Virus record (IMG/VR): IMGVR_UViG_3300023256_000002
Coordinates: 6,807-70,806 of that record
Source of the DNA: a virus
Lineage: Duplodnaviria; Caudoviricetes
Strand: one strand, 5' to 3'
Length of the DNA: 64,000 nt
Made by a program: the position numbers and the translations under genes. Numbering within the stretch: the stretch's first letter is position 1; the number at the start of each line of letters is the position of its first letter. The notes below the pieces were generated by a model. That model had not been told where the DNA came from. It did not search any database and was given only the letters and a program-made list of their open reading frames with translations. This document shows, one piece after another, positions 5,835 to 62,789 of the stretch.

Positions 5835-6329
5835 TTAAATTAACTTTAATGCTTCCTGTAATCCTTTTTCAAAGGCTTCTTCGTATGTTTTGTAGATCTT
5901 GGTATCTTTTTGGCTATATCCTATTGTTTTATATAAATCTAATAATTCGTTAACAGGAAAATGAGATGTCTTTGAATTTGAAGCTACACGCAAATTTATG
6001 TCATGCTTTTCTCTTAACCATTTCTGTAAAAGTGATTGGGTGGGAGCAGAAAAGTGATTTTCAATTATATTATGTTGCAAGGGGAATAATTCTGAAAGTG
6101 TACGATATGGGTAACCATTCACATCTTTGTCATATCCATTGTGAGATATTCTTTTGTTTTCAGGTTCGGTTTCTCCATCAAATTCAGAATGCTGTTTACT
6201 CCATTTATAACACTCAATACAGAATATATTGAATCCTTTTTCTTTGGCTAATTTAGCTGTTTCAAATGATATTAATTGTTCTTTCATAAATTCGCCATAA
6301 CTCTCTGCTGTATATATTGTATTTTTCAT
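5835..6329 (-). CDS. Conserved phage hypothetical protein
   Basis: EQLISFETAKLAKEKGF and SAPTQSLLQKWLREKH motifs. Confidence 0.6.
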   Translation of the reverse strand: MKNTIYTAESYGEFMKEQLISFETAKLAKEKGFNIFCIECYKWSKQHSEFDGETEPENKRISHNGYDKDVNGYPYRTLSELFPLQHNIIENHFSAPTQSLLQKWLREKHDINLRVASNSKTSHFPVNELLDLYKTIGYSQKDTKIYKTYEEAFEKGLQEALKLI

Positions 6330-21778: not shown

Positions 21779-24466
21779 TTAACATTTTGAATATCCGCAA
21801 TTAATTCTATCTATACATTCAATACATCCATTAATATATATTAGGTCAGAACCGCAATGTGGACATATATTCTGCGTTTTTGTTCCATCTTTAATAAGTT
21901 CCATTAATGTTTTTCTAATTCAATATATTAAAGAACTTATGTGTTTTGTATATTTCTCAAGTAAATTACATAATTGTCTTAAATCAATATTATGTCTTAA
22001 AGCCATTGAAATTAATCGTGCAATTTTGTCAACATTTGATTGTTTTTCTATTTTAGATTTTACACGTTCAATTAATATTTTATCAACATTATTATTTTCT
22101 AATAATTGGCTAATATCATCAATAAGTTCATCTACAATAGCCGTTTTTTCATGCGAGTTTGTTAAAATAAAAAATTCATAAGGAATTTCAAATTTTTTAG
22201 TAAGATACCCAATAAAAAAGTAATATTTTTTACCATCAGAAACTTTTCTTTTTTTCAAAAATGATTTATTTGGAGGTTTAATGCCATTCGTAACAACATT
22301 CTTTCCATTTTTTCTATAAAAATCATATAATTGTTTATTTTCGCTTGGCAATTTATCACTATTTTTTGCTACAGCAATTTCAGTTAAAACGCCCTCACGG
22401 CACTTATCTCTATATACTGTTACTCCTTTTAATTCACTTAAATATGCATTGCAAAATACATTTTGTACATCTTGTAATGACGCATCAGATGGTAAATTTA
22501 TTGTTTTGCTAATACTGCTGTCAACATATTTTTGAAATACTCCCTGCGTTTTAATATGACGTTCTGGATTAATATCTTGAGATGAAACTAAACATTTTTT
22601 GTTTTTTGCTTCATTAATGATACCAACTTTTATAATTCTTTTACCCAAAATATCATTTCTTTCATATTCAAATCTAAAGTACGGTTCAATTCCACCATTT
22701 ACATTACAAAGCATTGCAATACTTCCAGTCGGAGCAATTGATAATACATTACTATTTCTTAATCCATATTGCCTAACTACCAATTGTGTTTCTTTTGAAC
22801 ATAAATTTAAATAATGTTCGTGTAATTTCGTTACATTGTATACTGGAGCCTTCCCTAATTTTTTCGCCAACATTGCAGAATAATAATAGGATTTGTCTAG
22901 CATAAATTTCATTATTTTATCAGTAAAAGAAATTGCTTCTTGTGTTCCATATGTTATTCCTAATTTAATTAATAAATCTGCATACCCCATAATACCAAGC
23001 CCAATTTGTCTATAATATTTTTGATTTTTTTCTATTTGTTCGTCAAAATATTTTTCTGCATCAATTGACATATCTAAGAATTCAACACCAACTTTAATTG
23101 CTAAATCAAATTTACTTCAATTTATATAATCTGGTTTCGTGTCATCGTAAATTTGTAAAAAATTTATTGAACCTAAATTACAACTTGTACCACCACCATC
23201 ATCGCCAACTGGCAATGTTTGCTCACCGCAATTATGAATCAAAATATTGTTTGCAAAAAAGTTACAGTTATCTTTTACTGTAATATCATAAACGTCTTCC
23301 TTATTATTAAGGATAGTAATATTTTCCAATAAACACTCTTTAATTTTATCATCTAAGAAAACATCAGTTGTTTCTAGTTTTGAAGATTCAATATAATTTC
23401 TATATTTTGTATATATTTTATGATCTGGCGTTAATCTTATACTTTTTCCGTTATTAAACTTAATCTTAATAATGTTTGTATTTTTTCTAGTCAACATTCC
23501 ATTTATTATTTTTTTAAATTCATTCTTTTTTGTTTTTTCATTATATGACAATACCAATATTTCTTCATCATTGTCAAATTTTCCAATACAATCTTTAATT
23601 GTTAAAATGCCAAAATTTGTAGTTAATTTTGTATCTCCAGTAACGCATGGGTTTACTGTATTTATTTTAGCATCATTTTTATAATTTAAGTGTTTGTTAA
23701 TATTGTCTTTAAATAAAATACCTGGTTCTCCAGTTGCTCATGCATTGCTAATAATAATATCTCATAACTTTCTTGCTTTTATTGTTCTATGTATTTTGAC
23801 TGGATAACCTTTTGCAATTCAATCTTCAATAAATCCATTTCATTCTGCATCATAAATATCTTTACTTATTTTATCAATATCTGGAAAAATTAAATTTCAA
23901 TCATCTTCATTTTTTAATGCAATCATAAATTCATCAGATACCAATGGCGATATATTCATATTATTTATTTCGCCCAAATCATTCTTAACATTTAAGAAGT
24001 CAATAATTGACGGGTGCCACATATCTAAAATTCCAATTAACGCTCCTCTTCTGCTACCACCTTGCGTAATAACGCTTTGCATATATGCAAATCTTTTCAT
24101 AAACGAAACGGCGCCAGATGATACCGAATCTTTATAATGACATCGCTCTGTGTCTGCCGGTCTTAATATTGAAAAGTTTGTTCCAATCCCGCCGCCCCTT
24201 GACGAGACCAAATCAGATCTCGCTTCAAATTTTGAAATTGCCTCTAATGAATCATTTTTATAGCCAAGGGCATAACAATTAAATAATGTTTTTTTTATTT
24301 TATTTTCTCGTGCTATTAGTTGTCTGCCAGCAGGCATAAATAACATTTGCGTCATTAATTCATATTGTTCGTCATTGTAAGCGACTCTTTTACACATATC
24401 GTCAAATGTTTCTGTATCATACATTTGGTATTTCTTCTTGAATATTTGTTGATTAACTTTTTGCAT
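21779..24466 (-). CDS. nrdJ: Class II (B12-dependent-like) ribonucleotide reductase with mini-intein (code 4, 895 aa precursor)
   Basis: FMPAGR, NCY, GGGIGTNFS, SRRGA, A[W]ATGEPG, NP|CGEQ, CNLGSIN, IAPTG, SKTINLP, TVYRD, C-terminal CPHCGS..GC..C..CGYSKC; 7 in-frame TGA. Confidence 0.85.
23231..23647 (-). mobile_element. Mini-intein (139 aa, no endonuclease) at the RNR NP/CGE active site
   Basis: Starts CVTGDT, block B LTPDH, ends VYDITV..NFFANNILIHN followed by Cys. Confidence 0.88.
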
Positions 24467-29820: not shown

Positions 29821-29883
29821 CTTTCCCCCTTAAAACTCCAATTTAATTTAAACAACATAATTTTCAATTCTACTTTTAGCAAT
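29455..29883. repeat. 69-bp direct repeat (29455-29523 and 29815-29883)
   Basis: 65/69 identical by eye; copies the 3' end of the MTase gene plus the following RBS and ATG. Confidence 0.8.
29566..29610. repeat. attC-like hairpin, copy 3
   Basis: AAC-TGCC-TATCTATGC...GCATAT-AGCC-GTTATG, directly after the TAA of 29614-29820. Confidence 0.55.
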
Positions 29884-38012: not shown

Positions 38013-39338
38013 TTATTTAATGACTTTATAATTTTTGCCATGTTTAATTTTAACTGGGAATCTATCATCTTCTGTTAAAATATCTCTTATTGCTTTTATA
38101 AGTTCTTTGCCATCGCTAACATGATAGTCAATTAAAAATGAGTCATAAGTATACAACACTAAACAACTTTTGTAATTCTCAAGTAATTCATTCACTTTTA
38201 TCATTAAGGGAATATTTCTCTTTGTTTCATAGTTCTGAACAAAATAATTAAACAACTTTTGTTTGTTATCTATAACTGAAGTTTTTCTTTCAATTACTGG
38301 AATAACATCTTTATTTGAGTAATGTTCTATCCATATTACATTAATAAATTCTTTTAATTGTTTGTAAAATTCAATATGCTCATACTCTTTACTAATATGG
38401 CCATACATCTGTTTGAATGTAATACCTTTTGATTTGTCAATCATTTTTTGTGTTGGGGCTTTAACATTAAAATATTGTGATGCCATATACTCATGCCCCG
38501 TTAGCCCATCTGGGAATTCATATCCAATAATATCAGCAATCAAATATAAATGGCAGGCAACATAATCAAGTTCAACTAAAGTTCCACTTTTGCCAAATCT
38601 ACTAATAAAACATTCTCTGCTTTCGTCTGATTTGTTTAGTGCCGCATAATTGATTCCGCCAAAAGCATTTGAAGGCCTTCCTGTGATAGTGTTAAAATTA
38701 TACTTCGTATAAACTTTGTTGTCTGTAATATGTTTTGCGACATTGTACCCAAAGCTACGCATTAATTTATCTTTATCTACATACAATCCATTAGACTCAA
38801 GCTTGCTAAACGCTATTGACGCATCTTCATTATAAAATTGAAATTCTCTACTATCGGTATGTTTGTTAATCATTGGTATAAATTTATTAACCAAGTTTGT
38901 ACACATTTCGAGGTGCTTAACAATTGGAACTAATCGATTGTTTGATTTATATGTCTCATATTGTTTGTAAAAAAAGTGATGCGCTTTCGTTAAAAGTTTT
39001 TCAATATTTATGTTTCTGTTTATCCTGAGGTACTGCATAAGTGAAATATCAACCAGACCTTCAAATTCATATATCTGGAGCATCTCCTTTTTATCATAGA
39101 CGTATTTTATATTATTTATGTTCAATGCTTTCAAATCGTTTAATTTTAAGTGTGATTTTGTATCAATATGAGTAAAGGATAAAATGTATTCATTTTTTGT
39201 TTTGAGTTCATACACATACAATACGCAAAGTGGATTAATACTTGCGTGTTCAACATTATTGTTAAGAATTGGTATTACAATAATATCGTTCTCTAACTCA
39301 ATATCGTTTAATTGTTTTGTAGTATGAATAATTTGCAT
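38013..39338 (-). CDS. Family A DNA polymerase-like protein
   Basis: TGRPSN, motif A LVELDY, motif B K..TFKQMYG, NYFVQ, motif C LYTYDS. Confidence 0.75.
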   Translation of the reverse strand: MQIIHTTKQLNDIELENDIIVIPILNNNVEHASINPLCVLYVYELKTKNEYILSFTHIDTKSHLKLNDLKALNINNIKYVYDKKEMLQIYEFEGLVDISLMQYLRINRNINIEKLLTKAHHFFYKQYETYKSNNRLVPIVKHLEMCTNLVNKFIPMINKHTDSREFQFYNEDASIAFSKLESNGLYVDKDKLMRSFGYNVAKHITDNKVYTKYNFNTITGRPSNAFGGINYAALNKSDESRECFISRFGKSGTLVELDYVACHLYLIADIIGYEFPDGLTGHEYMASQYFNVKAPTQKMIDKSKGITFKQMYGHISKEYEHIEFYKQLKEFINVIWIEHYSNKDVIPVIERKTSVIDNKQKLFNYFVQNYETKRNIPLMIKVNELLENYKSCLVLYTYDSFLIDYHVSDGKELIKAIRDILTEDDRFPVKIKHGKNYKVIK

Positions 39339-60035: not shown

Positions 60036-60929
60036 TTATTTTTTAACAATCAATATTTCGTGTGATTGTTTTGGATTGTTGTTTGTTTTATTTTTACCAA
60101 TTCTTGTTTCTCCTTGCCCGTATGAATACATCCATTCTGGGTAATAAATATCAAAATCTTCATACCATTCATTAATGTTTTCGCAATTATTATAGCTTAA
60201 TATAAATCCTCCATTATGGTTGTATAGCAAATCTCTTAACTTTTTATGATTAAAGTTATTATGATGTATTGCATAATTGGGATTGGGATACATACCCTTA
60301 AACATTTTGTTATCTTTACTCTCTCCAAGTAAATACGGAGGGTCTAAATATAAGAAATCATTATTATGTTTCTTTAATACTTTTTCAAAATCTGATTGAT
60401 ATACTGATAGATTTCTACACTTAAAGTTTTTAACTCTATTTATCATTGCCTTATATTTTTTTTCATTATCTTTATATATAGACGACAGCCAACCCATATA
60501 CATTGGGCCATAAGATAGATTGTGATTAAAGTAATAATATGCCGCTCCCTGTATGTCTGTCAATTCTATTGGATTGTCATTGTAATAGGTTGTTTTTAAT
60601 TCTAAAAACAAATTTTGTGATTTACCCCATTTCTTTAGTTTGTCTTTGATTTTATCATACACATCTTTTGTTGGTTTTAATTTATTCAATTCGTTATATA
60701 ACTCAACTGGATTGCTTAATTGTATTTGCCAGAAATTAACTAATATATCAAACACGTCATAGCCTATAACTTTCTTATTTAATTCATTTGCCAAATATAC
60801 TTCTAATGAACCGCCACCAACAAAGGGAGATACAATCGTATCAATATTATTGGGGATATGTTTGATTATATGTTTGATTGCTTTTGACTTACCGCCTGCA
60901 TATCTAATTGTTGTTTTTATTTTAGCCAT
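60036..60929 (-). CDS. D12-class adenine methyltransferase
   Basis: RYAGGKS, SPFVGGGS, YLDPPY. Confidence 0.9.
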   Translation of the reverse strand: MAKIKTTIRYAGGKSKAIKHIIKHIPNNIDTIVSPFVGGGSLEVYLANELNKKVIGYDVFDILVNFWQIQLSNPVELYNELNKLKPTKDVYDKIKDKLKKWGKSQNLFLELKTTYYNDNPIELTDIQGAAYYYFNHNLSYGPMYMGWLSSIYKDNEKKYKAMINRVKNFKCRNLSVYQSDFEKVLKKHNNDFLYLDPPYLLGESKDNKMFKGMYPNPNYAIHHNNFNHKKLRDLLYNHNGGFILSYNNCENINEWYEDFDIYYPEWMYSYGQGETRIGKNKTNNNPKQSHEILIVKK

Positions 60930-60937
60930 TTACTTCC

Positions 60938-61489
60938 CTATATTTTTGTTTTCTTTATTCTATATTCGGCATACAAAATCTCATATCTTGTAGGAAATGT
61001 TTTGTGATTTTCTTGGAAGTTCCATATTGGATATCTACCGATTTTATTTTTATACTCTCTTTTGCAATCATCTTCACATACCATTGGGTCAATAGGAACC
61101 AATTTGTTTATAATAGTAGATAATGATGGAATATTTGCATATGTTTCAGGAACTTGTATTAGATAAATTCCCACTTTGTTTCCTTTTTCTAATTCGTCTT
61201 TAATTAATAATTGCATAATAAATCTATTTGGGCCTGGAGCGCCGCTCATTGAATTTTCATAAAAGTTCATTGTTGCTTTAATACCACCTTTACTTGCTGA
61301 CTTACCTATTTTGGCTATTTTGCCATTAATGGTAAATAAATAAACCCTACCGTTATTATTTGTTAGTATTTCTTTTTCGATTTTGTCGTTTAACTTACAT
61401 TTTATAAAATTTTTAGTTTCATCGTCTCGCAAAACAAACTCACCGACCATTTGTGCCGTTTTAGCATTTTTAATATGAAATTCAGACAT
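60938..61489 (-). CDS. Putative GIY-YIG-family restriction endonuclease
   Basis: RVYLF...KIGKS motif; coupled to the downstream MTase. Confidence 0.55.
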   Translation of the reverse strand: MSEFHIKNAKTAQMVGEFVLRDDETKNFIKCKLNDKIEKEILTNNNGRVYLFTINGKIAKIGKSASKGGIKATMNFYENSMSGAPGPNRFIMQLLIKDELEKGNKVGIYLIQVPETYANIPSLSTIINKLVPIDPMVCEDDCKREYKNKIGRYPIWNFQENHKTFPTRYEILYAEYRIKKTKI

Positions 61490-61518
61490 AAAGCCCCCTT
61501 TATTTAACTTACTATACT

Positions 61519-61546
61519 ACTATAATACGTTATTGGGGTTTGTCAA
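61519..61546 (-). promoter_or_regulatory. sigma70-like promoter for the R-M pair
   Basis: TTGACA (61546-61541)-N16-TATAGT (61524-61519). Confidence 0.6.
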
Positions 61547-61558
61547 ATTATTTCTAAA

Positions 61559-62386
61559 TTATTTTTTAATAGCATTTCTTCTCATCATGCTATTTGAAAT
61601 TTTTTGCTTTGTTTTGGCTGTATGTCTTGGTCTGCCAAATTCTCAATTGGTATTTTTACTAAGATATTCATCTACAAGTTTTTTTGTAATTTTTTTTGTT
61701 TCGCCTGTTTTTGGGTCTCAAACTCATTTCGTTCCATATTGAGAATTTTTGTTCCCAACATGAGCCCCCCTTGCAGAATTTTTCATTTTTTGTTTAGTCT
61801 TTTCCGAATGCGACGTAAAACCACCGTATCCACCTATATTAATATTATATGTATTTCCTTTTTTAATAAAATTTATATTAACTAGTTCAAATTCTTTGTC
61901 ATAGGCTTCTTTTTCAGTTATAAATTCATATAATATTTCTCTTTTGAAATTGCCATTGCCATATTTTTTTATAGCTTTGTTAATTAATTTGCCAGAACCC
62001 ATATATAAATCTGTATTAATATTTTTTGAACCTCTTACCCCAATATAAATTTTGTTATTAATTGTGTTTGTTGTTTTATAAACATAAAAGACAACATCAT
62101 TTGCATTTATCTGATTTTTTCAAGGAATTAATATTGATGCATTAAAATTATAACAATCAATATTATAGTCTATTCTTTTTTTGTTGTTATGTATTATACT
62201 TGATAAGGTTGCACCATTTATAATTCTGCCAACATATCATTTGCCCTCTTTTGATCATTTCTCTATATCTTCTCGTTGAATTAATTTATTTTTTTTACCA
62301 TTTGTAATTCATTTTGTTCCAGTAGTGCCACGCCTTCCGCTAGTTTTTTTGTCTAAGTCTTCATTAAAGTTATTCATTTTATACAT
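61559..62386 (-). CDS. Free-standing GIY-YIG (Seg-like) homing endonuclease (code 4, 275 aa, 7 TGA)
   Basis: YVYKTTN..NNKIYIG, YMGSG...AIKKYG..NFKREIL, YNI..GG; GTK[W]ITNG and [W]EFGR NUMOD-like motifs. Confidence 0.85.
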
Positions 62387-62476
62387 TTAACCCCTTCTCT
62401 AATAAGTATTGAAGAAATTATTTTTTTTGATTTTAATTTAATTTGTTAAATGATTGGTATGTTTGCGTTTACAAAA

Positions 62477-62789
62477 TGGCAGGGAGTGTGGGACTCGAAC
62501 CCACTTTGACTCCTTGGACGGATACGGGTTTGCTTACCACTATAGTTTTCACTACCAATTCTAAAAATTGTTTGTGGTCTGGACTTTCTCTTCATCATAT
62601 TATAAAAAAATAATTTAGATGTTCTCCCGTTAAGTCTCTACACTTTCCTTATATTAAGGCTTAGCTCGGGATTGCCATTTCAAAGGTTTCCCCGAATTTG
62701 AGAGAATTCAATATACACATTTCTATGTATACGCTCCAATTTGTTATATAGCTAAAGCCCGCCGTAATCACCTACTATACCAACTCCCT
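62477..62789 (-). tRNA. Intron-split tRNA, spliced anticodon UCA (UGA-decoding, probably Trp)
   Basis: Exon 1 62789-62755 AGGGAGT TG GTAT AGTAGGTGA TTAC G GCGGG CTT; exon 2 62532-62477 CAAA CCCGT var(19 nt) GTGGG TTCGAGT CCCAC ACTCCCT G CCA; 7/5 cloverleaf, A1-U72, G73, encoded CCA. Confidence 0.85.
62533..62754 (-). ncRNA. Group I intron (IC3-like), 222 nt, no ORF
   Basis: AAATTCGGGGAAACC (P), GGCAATCCCGAGC (Q), GTAGAGACTTAACGGG (R), AAGAGAAAGTCC (S); terminal G; IGS UUGGAGC forms P1 (U.G at the splice site) and P10. Confidence 0.88.

Follow-up and report, generated by a model that had tools for sequence, protein, structure and literature searches.

The window analysed here is a stretch of 64,000 nucleotides, bases 6807-70806 of a 70.8-kb IMG/VR record that is about 32% complete according to CheckV. 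On its minus strand the window contains a tRNA gene, which is interrupted in the anticodon loop by a group I intron (Table 1). When introns are allowed, ARAGORN predicts one tRNA, with the anticodon TCA and a 222-nt intron at ggctt|intron|caaac. This call is obtained both on the 64-kb window and on the whole 70.8-kb record, and the split tRNA(UCA) is the sole tRNA that the program finds in the record. In its default mode, ARAGORN finds zero tRNAs in the 64-kb window. A scan for promoters and terminators around the tRNA gene gave none that exceeded the shuffled background.

Table 1. Features of the split tRNA gene and its surroundings, in window coordinates.
Feature	Position	Strand	Basis or remark
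tRNA 5' exon, 35 nt	62755..62789	(-)	ARAGORN intron mode
Group I intron, 222 nt, begins UAG, terminal G at 62533	62533..62754	(-)	RF00028
Internal guide UUG|GAGC	62733..62739	(-)	P1 with exon GCUU, P10 with exon-2 CAA
P2 tip, GAAA tetraloop	62718..62725	(-)	GAAA invariant in alignment A1; P2 pairs covary
P7 5' strand, GACUU within GAGACUUAA	62630..62638	(-)	pairs with 62581-62587
P7 3' strand, AAGUC	62581..62587	(-)	pairs with 62630-62638
P9 (ACCAC/GUGGU) around GAAA-capped hairpin, then AAG with terminal G	62533..62578	(-)	beyond Rfam match
tRNA 3' exon, 56 nt	62477..62532	(-)	ARAGORN intron mode
Variable-arm hairpin UCC-GUCCAA-GGA, loop U-CCA-A	62511..62522	(-)	fold
GIY-YIG homing endonuclease gene, free-standing, 90 nt from the 3' end of the tRNA gene	61559..62386	(-)	phrog_314, E 7e-34

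The 5' exon contains the acceptor strand AGGGAGU, the D arm, the 5' strand GCGGG of the anticodon stem and the loop bases C32, U33 and U34. The 3' exon resumes the loop with C35, A36, A37 and A38 and continues through the anticodon stem strand CCCGU, a variable region of 19 nt, the T arm GUGGG/CCCAC, the acceptor strand ACUCCCU, G73 and an encoded CCA. Joined, the exons give a 91-nt tRNA with the anticodon loop CUUCAAA and the anticodon UCA. Its cloverleaf has 7/5 arms, a D stem of 3-4 bp, a 9-nt D loop with G18-G19, and a normal T loop, and its acceptor end is formed by A1-U72, G2-C71, G3-C70 and G73. The cloverleaf, with the anticodon UCA and with A36-A37-A38, is the one expected of an opal suppressor tRNA-Trp(UCA).

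The intron interrupts the anticodon loop between U34 and C35, at the site used by the IC3 introns of class Leu.3Ug. Read on the sequence, CUU|CAAA is the only register that places U at position -1 and G at the end of the intron, and the predicted splice junction is fixed by this register rule, by the pairings of the internal guide and by the uninterrupted form of the gene in another phage contig, L001. The first-pass annotation had described a cloverleaf at 62477-62789, split as CUU|CAAA, with a UCA anticodon that exists only after splicing; the coordinates are exact, the ARAGORN call has the same split, and the ARAGORN junction and the intron-free copy agree on that anticodon.

The last bases of the intron are AAG. 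It matches the Rfam family RF00028 over 62764..62561 (-) with 67.5 bits (E 6e-17), above the gathering score of 50. The match aligns the U.G pair of P1 at ...GGGCUU|UAG and stops 28 nt before the true terminal G, so that P9 lies beyond it; P9 and its GAAA-capped inner hairpin are nevertheless kept in relatives with compensatory changes. In alignment A1, which consists of the window intron and 18 members of its family that lie in phage tRNA genes, RNAalifold predicts 44 pairs that make up P2, P3, P4, P5, P6, P6a, P8, P9 and P9a. All 44 are present in the window intron, and 30 of them covary within the family by changes on both sides. Since P3 and P7 form a pseudoknot that the program cannot draw, P7 was checked apart from RNAalifold, in columns 137-141 and 188-192 of A1, where 5/5 pairs are kept and two of the five show compensatory changes. 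The catalytic core of a group I intron, P3-P9 with the P3/P7 pseudoknot, is accordingly present, as are all 80 invariant core positions of the intron family (80/80), and when the intron is folded as a single sequence most of the family helices are recovered, with z = -2.8 against shuffles. That tRNA and intron are a chance match is excluded by the E-value of the Rfam match together with the intron-free copy in L001. The earlier description of an ORF-less group I intron of 222 nt with a terminal G thus stands, since no endonuclease-sized ORF was found within these 222 nt. A 50-codon frame at 62446-62598 was taken as spurious, as it crosses both the conserved core and a tRNA exon.

The RF00028 match appears only when a short stretch, of 700 nt, is searched; two Rfam scans of the whole window, with gathering and with E-value thresholds, missed the intron. 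Speed filters in this way hide AT-rich introns like this one, in spite of its 67.5 bits, in routine whole-window annotation.

The internal guide forms P1 by pairing GAGC with exon GCUU (4/4 pairs, with U.G at the splice site) and P10 by pairing UUG with CAA of exon 2 (3/3 pairs), with the terminal G at 62533, as in group I introns generally. Both helices had been proposed at the outset, and they are found as described. Position by position, the guide-exon pairs of the window intron are C35:G, A36:U, A37:U and G31:C. To see how the guide relates to the anticodon, consider the corresponding pairs in the family as a whole. The guide base that adjoins GAG pairs with N35 in 21/21 distinct members (A:U in 17, C:G in 4), and the next guide base pairs with N36 in 20 of the 21 (A:U in 17, U:A in 3). 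From this covariation it follows that the guide tracks the anticodon, and in the window it fits C35-A36, that is UCA and not UAA. This tracking also provides a means to confirm splice sites from sequence alone.

In the contig IMGVR_UViG_3300035698_018540 (L001), the same tRNA occurs uninterrupted, with a length of 93 nt and the anticodon TCA, so that the intronless version in a related phage which the first-pass annotation had suggested searching for does exist; RF00005 gives it 57.3 bits. The alignment of this tRNA to the window breaks at 62755|62532, precisely at the predicted junction, with 90% identity in the 5' exon and 95% in the 3' exon. All differences between the exons come down to U31-A39 in place of G31-C39 and one extra G-C pair in the stem of the variable arm, and both preserve structure. 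The proteins that L001 and the window have in common are 47-59% identical and their gene order differs. By these identities the tRNA has diverged far less than the remainder of the two genomes, and it follows that the exons are under strong constraint. The ORFs of L001 likewise contain in-frame TGA. Two further exact-pattern scans of IMG/VR for close relatives of the tRNA returned L001 alone, a metagenome scan for close relatives of the window tRNA found none, and blastn with the uninterrupted tRNA as the query gave zero matches in 50,697 phage records.

Directly after the tRNA of L001, at 6008-6070 (-), there is a 7-bp hairpin with the loop GUCCAAA, and about 30 nt beyond it the string CUGCCA, which resembles a piece of a second Trp-type tRNA. 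The overall fold of 6008-6070 is not better than that of shuffles, and the segment has no Rfam match.

The meaning of TGA in this phage can be read from its genes. Across 50 ORFs, TGA occurs in frame 88 times and TGG 163 times, all ORFs end with TAA or TAG and none with TGA, and the cover of the sequence by long ORFs rises from 0.77 to 0.91 when TGA is read as sense. In NrdJ, TGA stands at a conserved Trp (naWatgepg against naWksgdpg in Thermotoga); in the tail sheath it stands at W572 when T4 gp18 is the reference, and at W572 and W641 when the reference is Microcystis phage Mel-JY01; in a Dam-type methylase it stands at a Trp conserved with DpnM (ikWtggkr), and in a gp41-type helicase at the conserved Trp of vWtasq. 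The remaining aligned TGA positions are mostly F/Y, some are L or variable, and conserved Ser is never among them. With TGA at invariant Trp in four unrelated protein families and with no ORF that ends in TGA, the code TGA=Trp that was assumed earlier is well supported by codon positions, and in-frame TGA is found where an opal suppressor carrying tryptophan would be needed. The genes that contain TGA include those for helicase, RecA and ribonucleotide reductase, and read-through would therefore be needed from the stage of replication, beyond the virion genes. A gene for TrpRS or for a release factor was not found in this fragment, which represents about 32% of the genome.

The use of TGA is bimodal along the window. 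Between 1 and 18400, 15 of 17 ORFs lack TGA, with 65 TGG codons over those 17 ORFs; between 18400 and 64000, many ORFs spell most of their Trp codons as TGA, and the TGA-free ORFs there are the methylases at 29848 and 60036 and the ORFs at 38013 and 54485. The gene at 21779-24466 (-), for a B12-dependent ribonucleotide reductase, has seven TGA and one TGG and carries an intein at approximately residues 275-412, which matches the solved NrdJ-1 and DnaX mini-inteins and after which the match to ribonucleotide reductase resumes.

In tRNA-Trp of E. coli, the identity elements at the acceptor end are G73, A1-U72, G2-C71 and G3-C70. All of them are present in the spliced tRNA of the window, and from these Trp-like elements and the codon positions we infer that it is charged with tryptophan. 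Its 19-nt variable region is unusual for a tRNA-Trp and contains a hairpin whose loop displays CCA, the tryptophan anticodon. The variable arm in L001 (6089-6114), UCCG-GUCCAA-CGGA, has an identical loop and one pair more. In 10 of 12 other distinct split tRNA(UCA) genes, picked by the 3' end of their introns alone and thus blind to the variable arm, CCA likewise lies in a hairpin loop at the variable arm, often as CUCCAAA, and a motif-based scan gave 12 further examples of such a hairpin in intron-free tRNAs. CUCCAAA is the usual anticodon loop of tRNA-Trp.

Among 50,697 annotated phage records, the nearest relative of the intron is the tRNA-Leu(UAA) intron of a 735-kb uncultured phage, LR756501, which splits its host tRNA as CUU|AAAA and is 72% identical over 221 nt. 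A 35-nt core motif occurs at 39 IMG/VR loci, most of them tRNA-Leu(UAA) and tRNA-Arg(UCU) genes, one with the anticodon UAU (Ile-like), and some of them protein genes. A 22-nt core motif occurs in at least 120 bacterial genomes; in 92 of the 120 listed it lies in a tRNA-Leu(UAA) split as CUU|AAAA, and in a few of those listed in Leu(CAA), Arg(CCU) or Met/fMet(CAU). The intron classes of Leu(UAA), Leu(CAA), Arg(CCU) and Met/fMet(CAU) are all listed by Williams 2020 (bioRxiv 10.1101/2020.01.27.920355), who notes that the four classical tRNA intron classes are assigned to subgroup IC3. The label IC3 rests in that work on a citation of the group I intron database, and it is extended to the window intron by kinship.

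The class closest in kind, Leu.3Ug (CUU/a...g/AAAA), is known from cyanobacteria, plastids, other bacteria and phages (Williams 2020, bioRxiv 10.1101/2020.01.27.920355). The window intron shares with it the site after U34, the U.G pair at the 5' splice site, the terminal G, the core helices and the GAAA loops on P2 and P9, and the core of the window intron is 70-78% identical to phage introns in tRNA-Leu(UAA) and tRNA-Arg(UCU). In contrast to Leu.3Ug introns, which have the guide UUU/AUU|GAGU/C, it has UUG|GAGC, which fits C35 and G31, and its L1 is longer. The kinship with the IC3 tRNA-Leu(UAA) intron after U34, to which the first-pass annotation had pointed, is thus apparent both from LR756501 and from the 92 bacterial genomes, and among the features that define the group the sole one that the window intron lacks is the host, which is a Trp-like UCA suppressor and not tRNA-Leu(UAA). 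The nomenclature of Williams would call for a class of its own, a new 'Sup(UCA).3Ug', and the host range of the tRNA-Leu-type intron is with this extended to a tRNA that reads a stop codon. A profile of the family, searched with nhmmer, found no second copy in the 70.8-kb record.

The GIY-YIG gene downstream of the tRNA spells 7/7 of its Trp codons as TGA, with zero TGG, and its match to the Pfam family SegE_GIY-YIG is weak. It is the first gene of a block at 60036-62386 (-), directly downstream of the tRNA, which also contains an endonuclease-like ORF (phrog_1111) and a D12-class (Dam-type) adenine methylase, both of them TGA-free. In L001 this block of about 2.5 kb is absent between the tRNA and the homologue of window position 59.8 kb, which fits an insertion of mobile DNA at the spot beside the tRNA.

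Taken together, the locus is very probably the functional gene for an opal-suppressor tRNA of a myovirus in which TGA is recoded to Trp, split by a mobile, ORF-less group I intron that is not a regulatory device. Splicing would then be an obligatory maturation step. The intron itself would most likely be selfish, a passenger that this lineage probably gained from tRNA introns of a neighbouring class and adapted to the UCA loop. Transcription of the minus strand would give a 313-nt precursor, in which the ribozyme core would fold into P2-P9 with the P3/P7 pseudoknot. Pairing of the guide GAGC with exon GCUU would place U34 in the U.G wobble, where free guanosine would cut after 62755; the guide UUG would pair with C35-A36-A37 of exon 2 as P10, the terminal G at 62533 would enter the site in P7, and the exons would be joined. 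The resulting 91-nt tRNA, with the loop CUUCAAA, would be charged with tryptophan by the host enzyme, which would fit G73, A1-U72, G2-C71, G3-C70 and perhaps the CCA-bearing hairpin of the variable arm, and the charged tRNA would read the 88 in-frame UGA codons of the fragment. Splicing, its rate and the junction in the RNA are what we infer here from the DNA.

That the spliced tRNA instead carries serine or selenocysteine is hardly credible. A long variable arm and G73 are features of SerRS recognition, and the tRNA has G73 and a variable region of 19 nt, but the hairpin in that region has just 3 bp and displays CCA, and the acceptor end is Trp-like; moreover, TGA is found at invariant Trp in four protein families and elsewhere mostly at aromatic positions. 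The label tRNA-SeC, which ARAGORN prints for the window tRNA, is printed for any TCA anticodon. A tRNA-Sec was also rejected on the geometry of the arms, which are 7/5 with a D stem of 3-4 bp and a 9-nt D loop, whereas bacterial tRNA-Sec has 8/5 arms, a 6-bp D stem and a 4-nt loop. Suppose, on the other hand, that the intron is dead and the locus a relic, so that UGA is read by a tRNA encoded elsewhere in the genome or by a host in which UGA means Trp. With just about 32% of the genome in the record, a further suppressor tRNA, TrpRS or release factor may be encoded outside it, but a relic would hardly have kept all consensus helices, the 80 invariant core positions and a perfect match of P1 and P10 to the exons, nor would its exons be 90-95% identical to an intact homologue, with every change preserving structure, when the proteins are about 50% identical. 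This reading is very unlikely.

The first-pass annotation had proposed that self-splicing acts as a timer or condition-dependent switch: slow or conditional splicing would gate the appearance of the UCA tRNA and in this way turn on read-through of the TGA-containing genes. No UCA anticodon can exist before splicing, the ORFs between 1 and 18.4 kb are nearly TGA-free and those beyond are rich in TGA, and the guide is fitted to the UCA anticodon loop, as expected if the intron has been kept functional in its UCA setting; all this would suit a switch. Against it, however, the related recoded phage L001 has the tRNA without the intron, introns of this family interrupt ordinary Leu, Arg and Ile-like tRNA genes in many phages and bacteria, none of which calls for a switch, and the TGA codons in the genes for helicase, RecA and ribonucleotide reductase mean that the tRNA is needed from replication onward. 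The homing endonuclease gene that adjoins the tRNA fits mobility, and no feature of regulated splicing was seen in the sequence. Regulated splicing would be important if true, but the evidence does not favour it, and the proposal appears improbable. A more elaborate version, in which intron, GIY-YIG endonuclease and suppressor tRNA form one interdependent unit, is equally doubtful. Splicing would here set the time or the condition of UGA decoding, the endonuclease, with its seven TGA codons, would be made only after spliced tRNA exists, and it would cut the intron-free suppressor alleles of co-infecting relatives, so that the split gene would be both a gate on the change of code and a weapon between recoded phages.

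The split gene of the window is not alone of its kind. A search with the pattern 'P9 end + CAAA' gave 44 further IMG/VR contigs of 18-233 kb, in 21 of which ARAGORN calls a tRNA(UCA) split at CUU|CAAA, most of the others being mis-split. These genes share with the window gene the split CUU|CAAA, the type of intron, the Trp-like acceptor and usually the CCA hairpin of the variable arm. Their introns often carry inserts of 350-700 nt, and the window tRNA differs from theirs in its body, with a variable stem of 3 bp and the 6-nt loop GUCCAA. In a tree of ribozyme cores, from which three partly aligned rows (L026, L163 and L187) are omitted, the other UCA-hosted introns come out as a single clade with strong support, while the window intron falls among Leu, Arg and Ile-like introns, and 0 bootstrap trees unite all UCA-hosted introns. 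An AU test does not reject a single clade of UCA-hosted introns (p 0.17; p 0.066 once the columns used to fish the sequences are removed). The placement of the window intron suggests that a suppressor tRNA was likely invaded a second time, independently.

Suppressor tRNAs with the anticodon UCA are known from phages that have recoded TGA to Trp (Borges et al., bioRxiv 10.1101/2021.08.26.457843; Yutin et al. 2021, PMC7886860), and the window resembles these phages in the anticodon, in having TGA at Trp positions and in lacking TrpRS and a release factor in the fragment at hand. Unlike the suppressor genes described there, the gene of the window is split by an intron and hence invisible to default tRNA finders, and unlike in those phages the replication genes are recoded as well. 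The window phage is, moreover, a myovirus with a T4-like sheath and not a gut crAss-like or Agate phage. The nearest annotated homologues of its sheath belong to a Microcystis phage, a 484-kb uncultured metagenomic phage and Flavobacterium phages, from which an aquatic setting is likely.

Borges et al. (bioRxiv 10.1101/2021.08.26.457843) could detect a TGA suppressor tRNA in just about 35% of the genomes recoded at TGA, and for recoded phages without a detectable suppressor, non-canonical tRNAs have been suspected by Borges et al., by Yutin et al. (PMC7886860) and in the Zeta crAss-like study. A screen from 2025 covered 213 phage suppressor tRNAs; it relied on tRNAscan-SE, and predictions longer than 100 nt were flagged there as being of low confidence, so that split genes would probably have been missed. 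Among open-access papers and bioRxiv, none was found that describes a phage suppressor tRNA split by a group I intron. The statement in the first-pass annotation that no such case had been described therefore agrees with this literature, but the 44 further contigs make clear that the combination is not rare in the data. Searches for tRNAs that allow for group I introns should recover a part of the missing suppressors, and thereby improve code calling and annotation.

In intron mode (contigs L005-L043 and L163-L206), ARAGORN often misplaces the junction when the flanks are long or when there is a second anticodon-like arm, and the misplaced calls read Tyr(ata), Phe(gaa), tcg or tta where the rule of U at -1 and terminal G gives UAA or UCA. 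Four IMG/VR contigs of 83-281 kb (L014, L020, L035 and L038) contain two related introns about 600 nt apart, from which it is seen that the intron family can interrupt two adjacent tRNA genes within a single phage.
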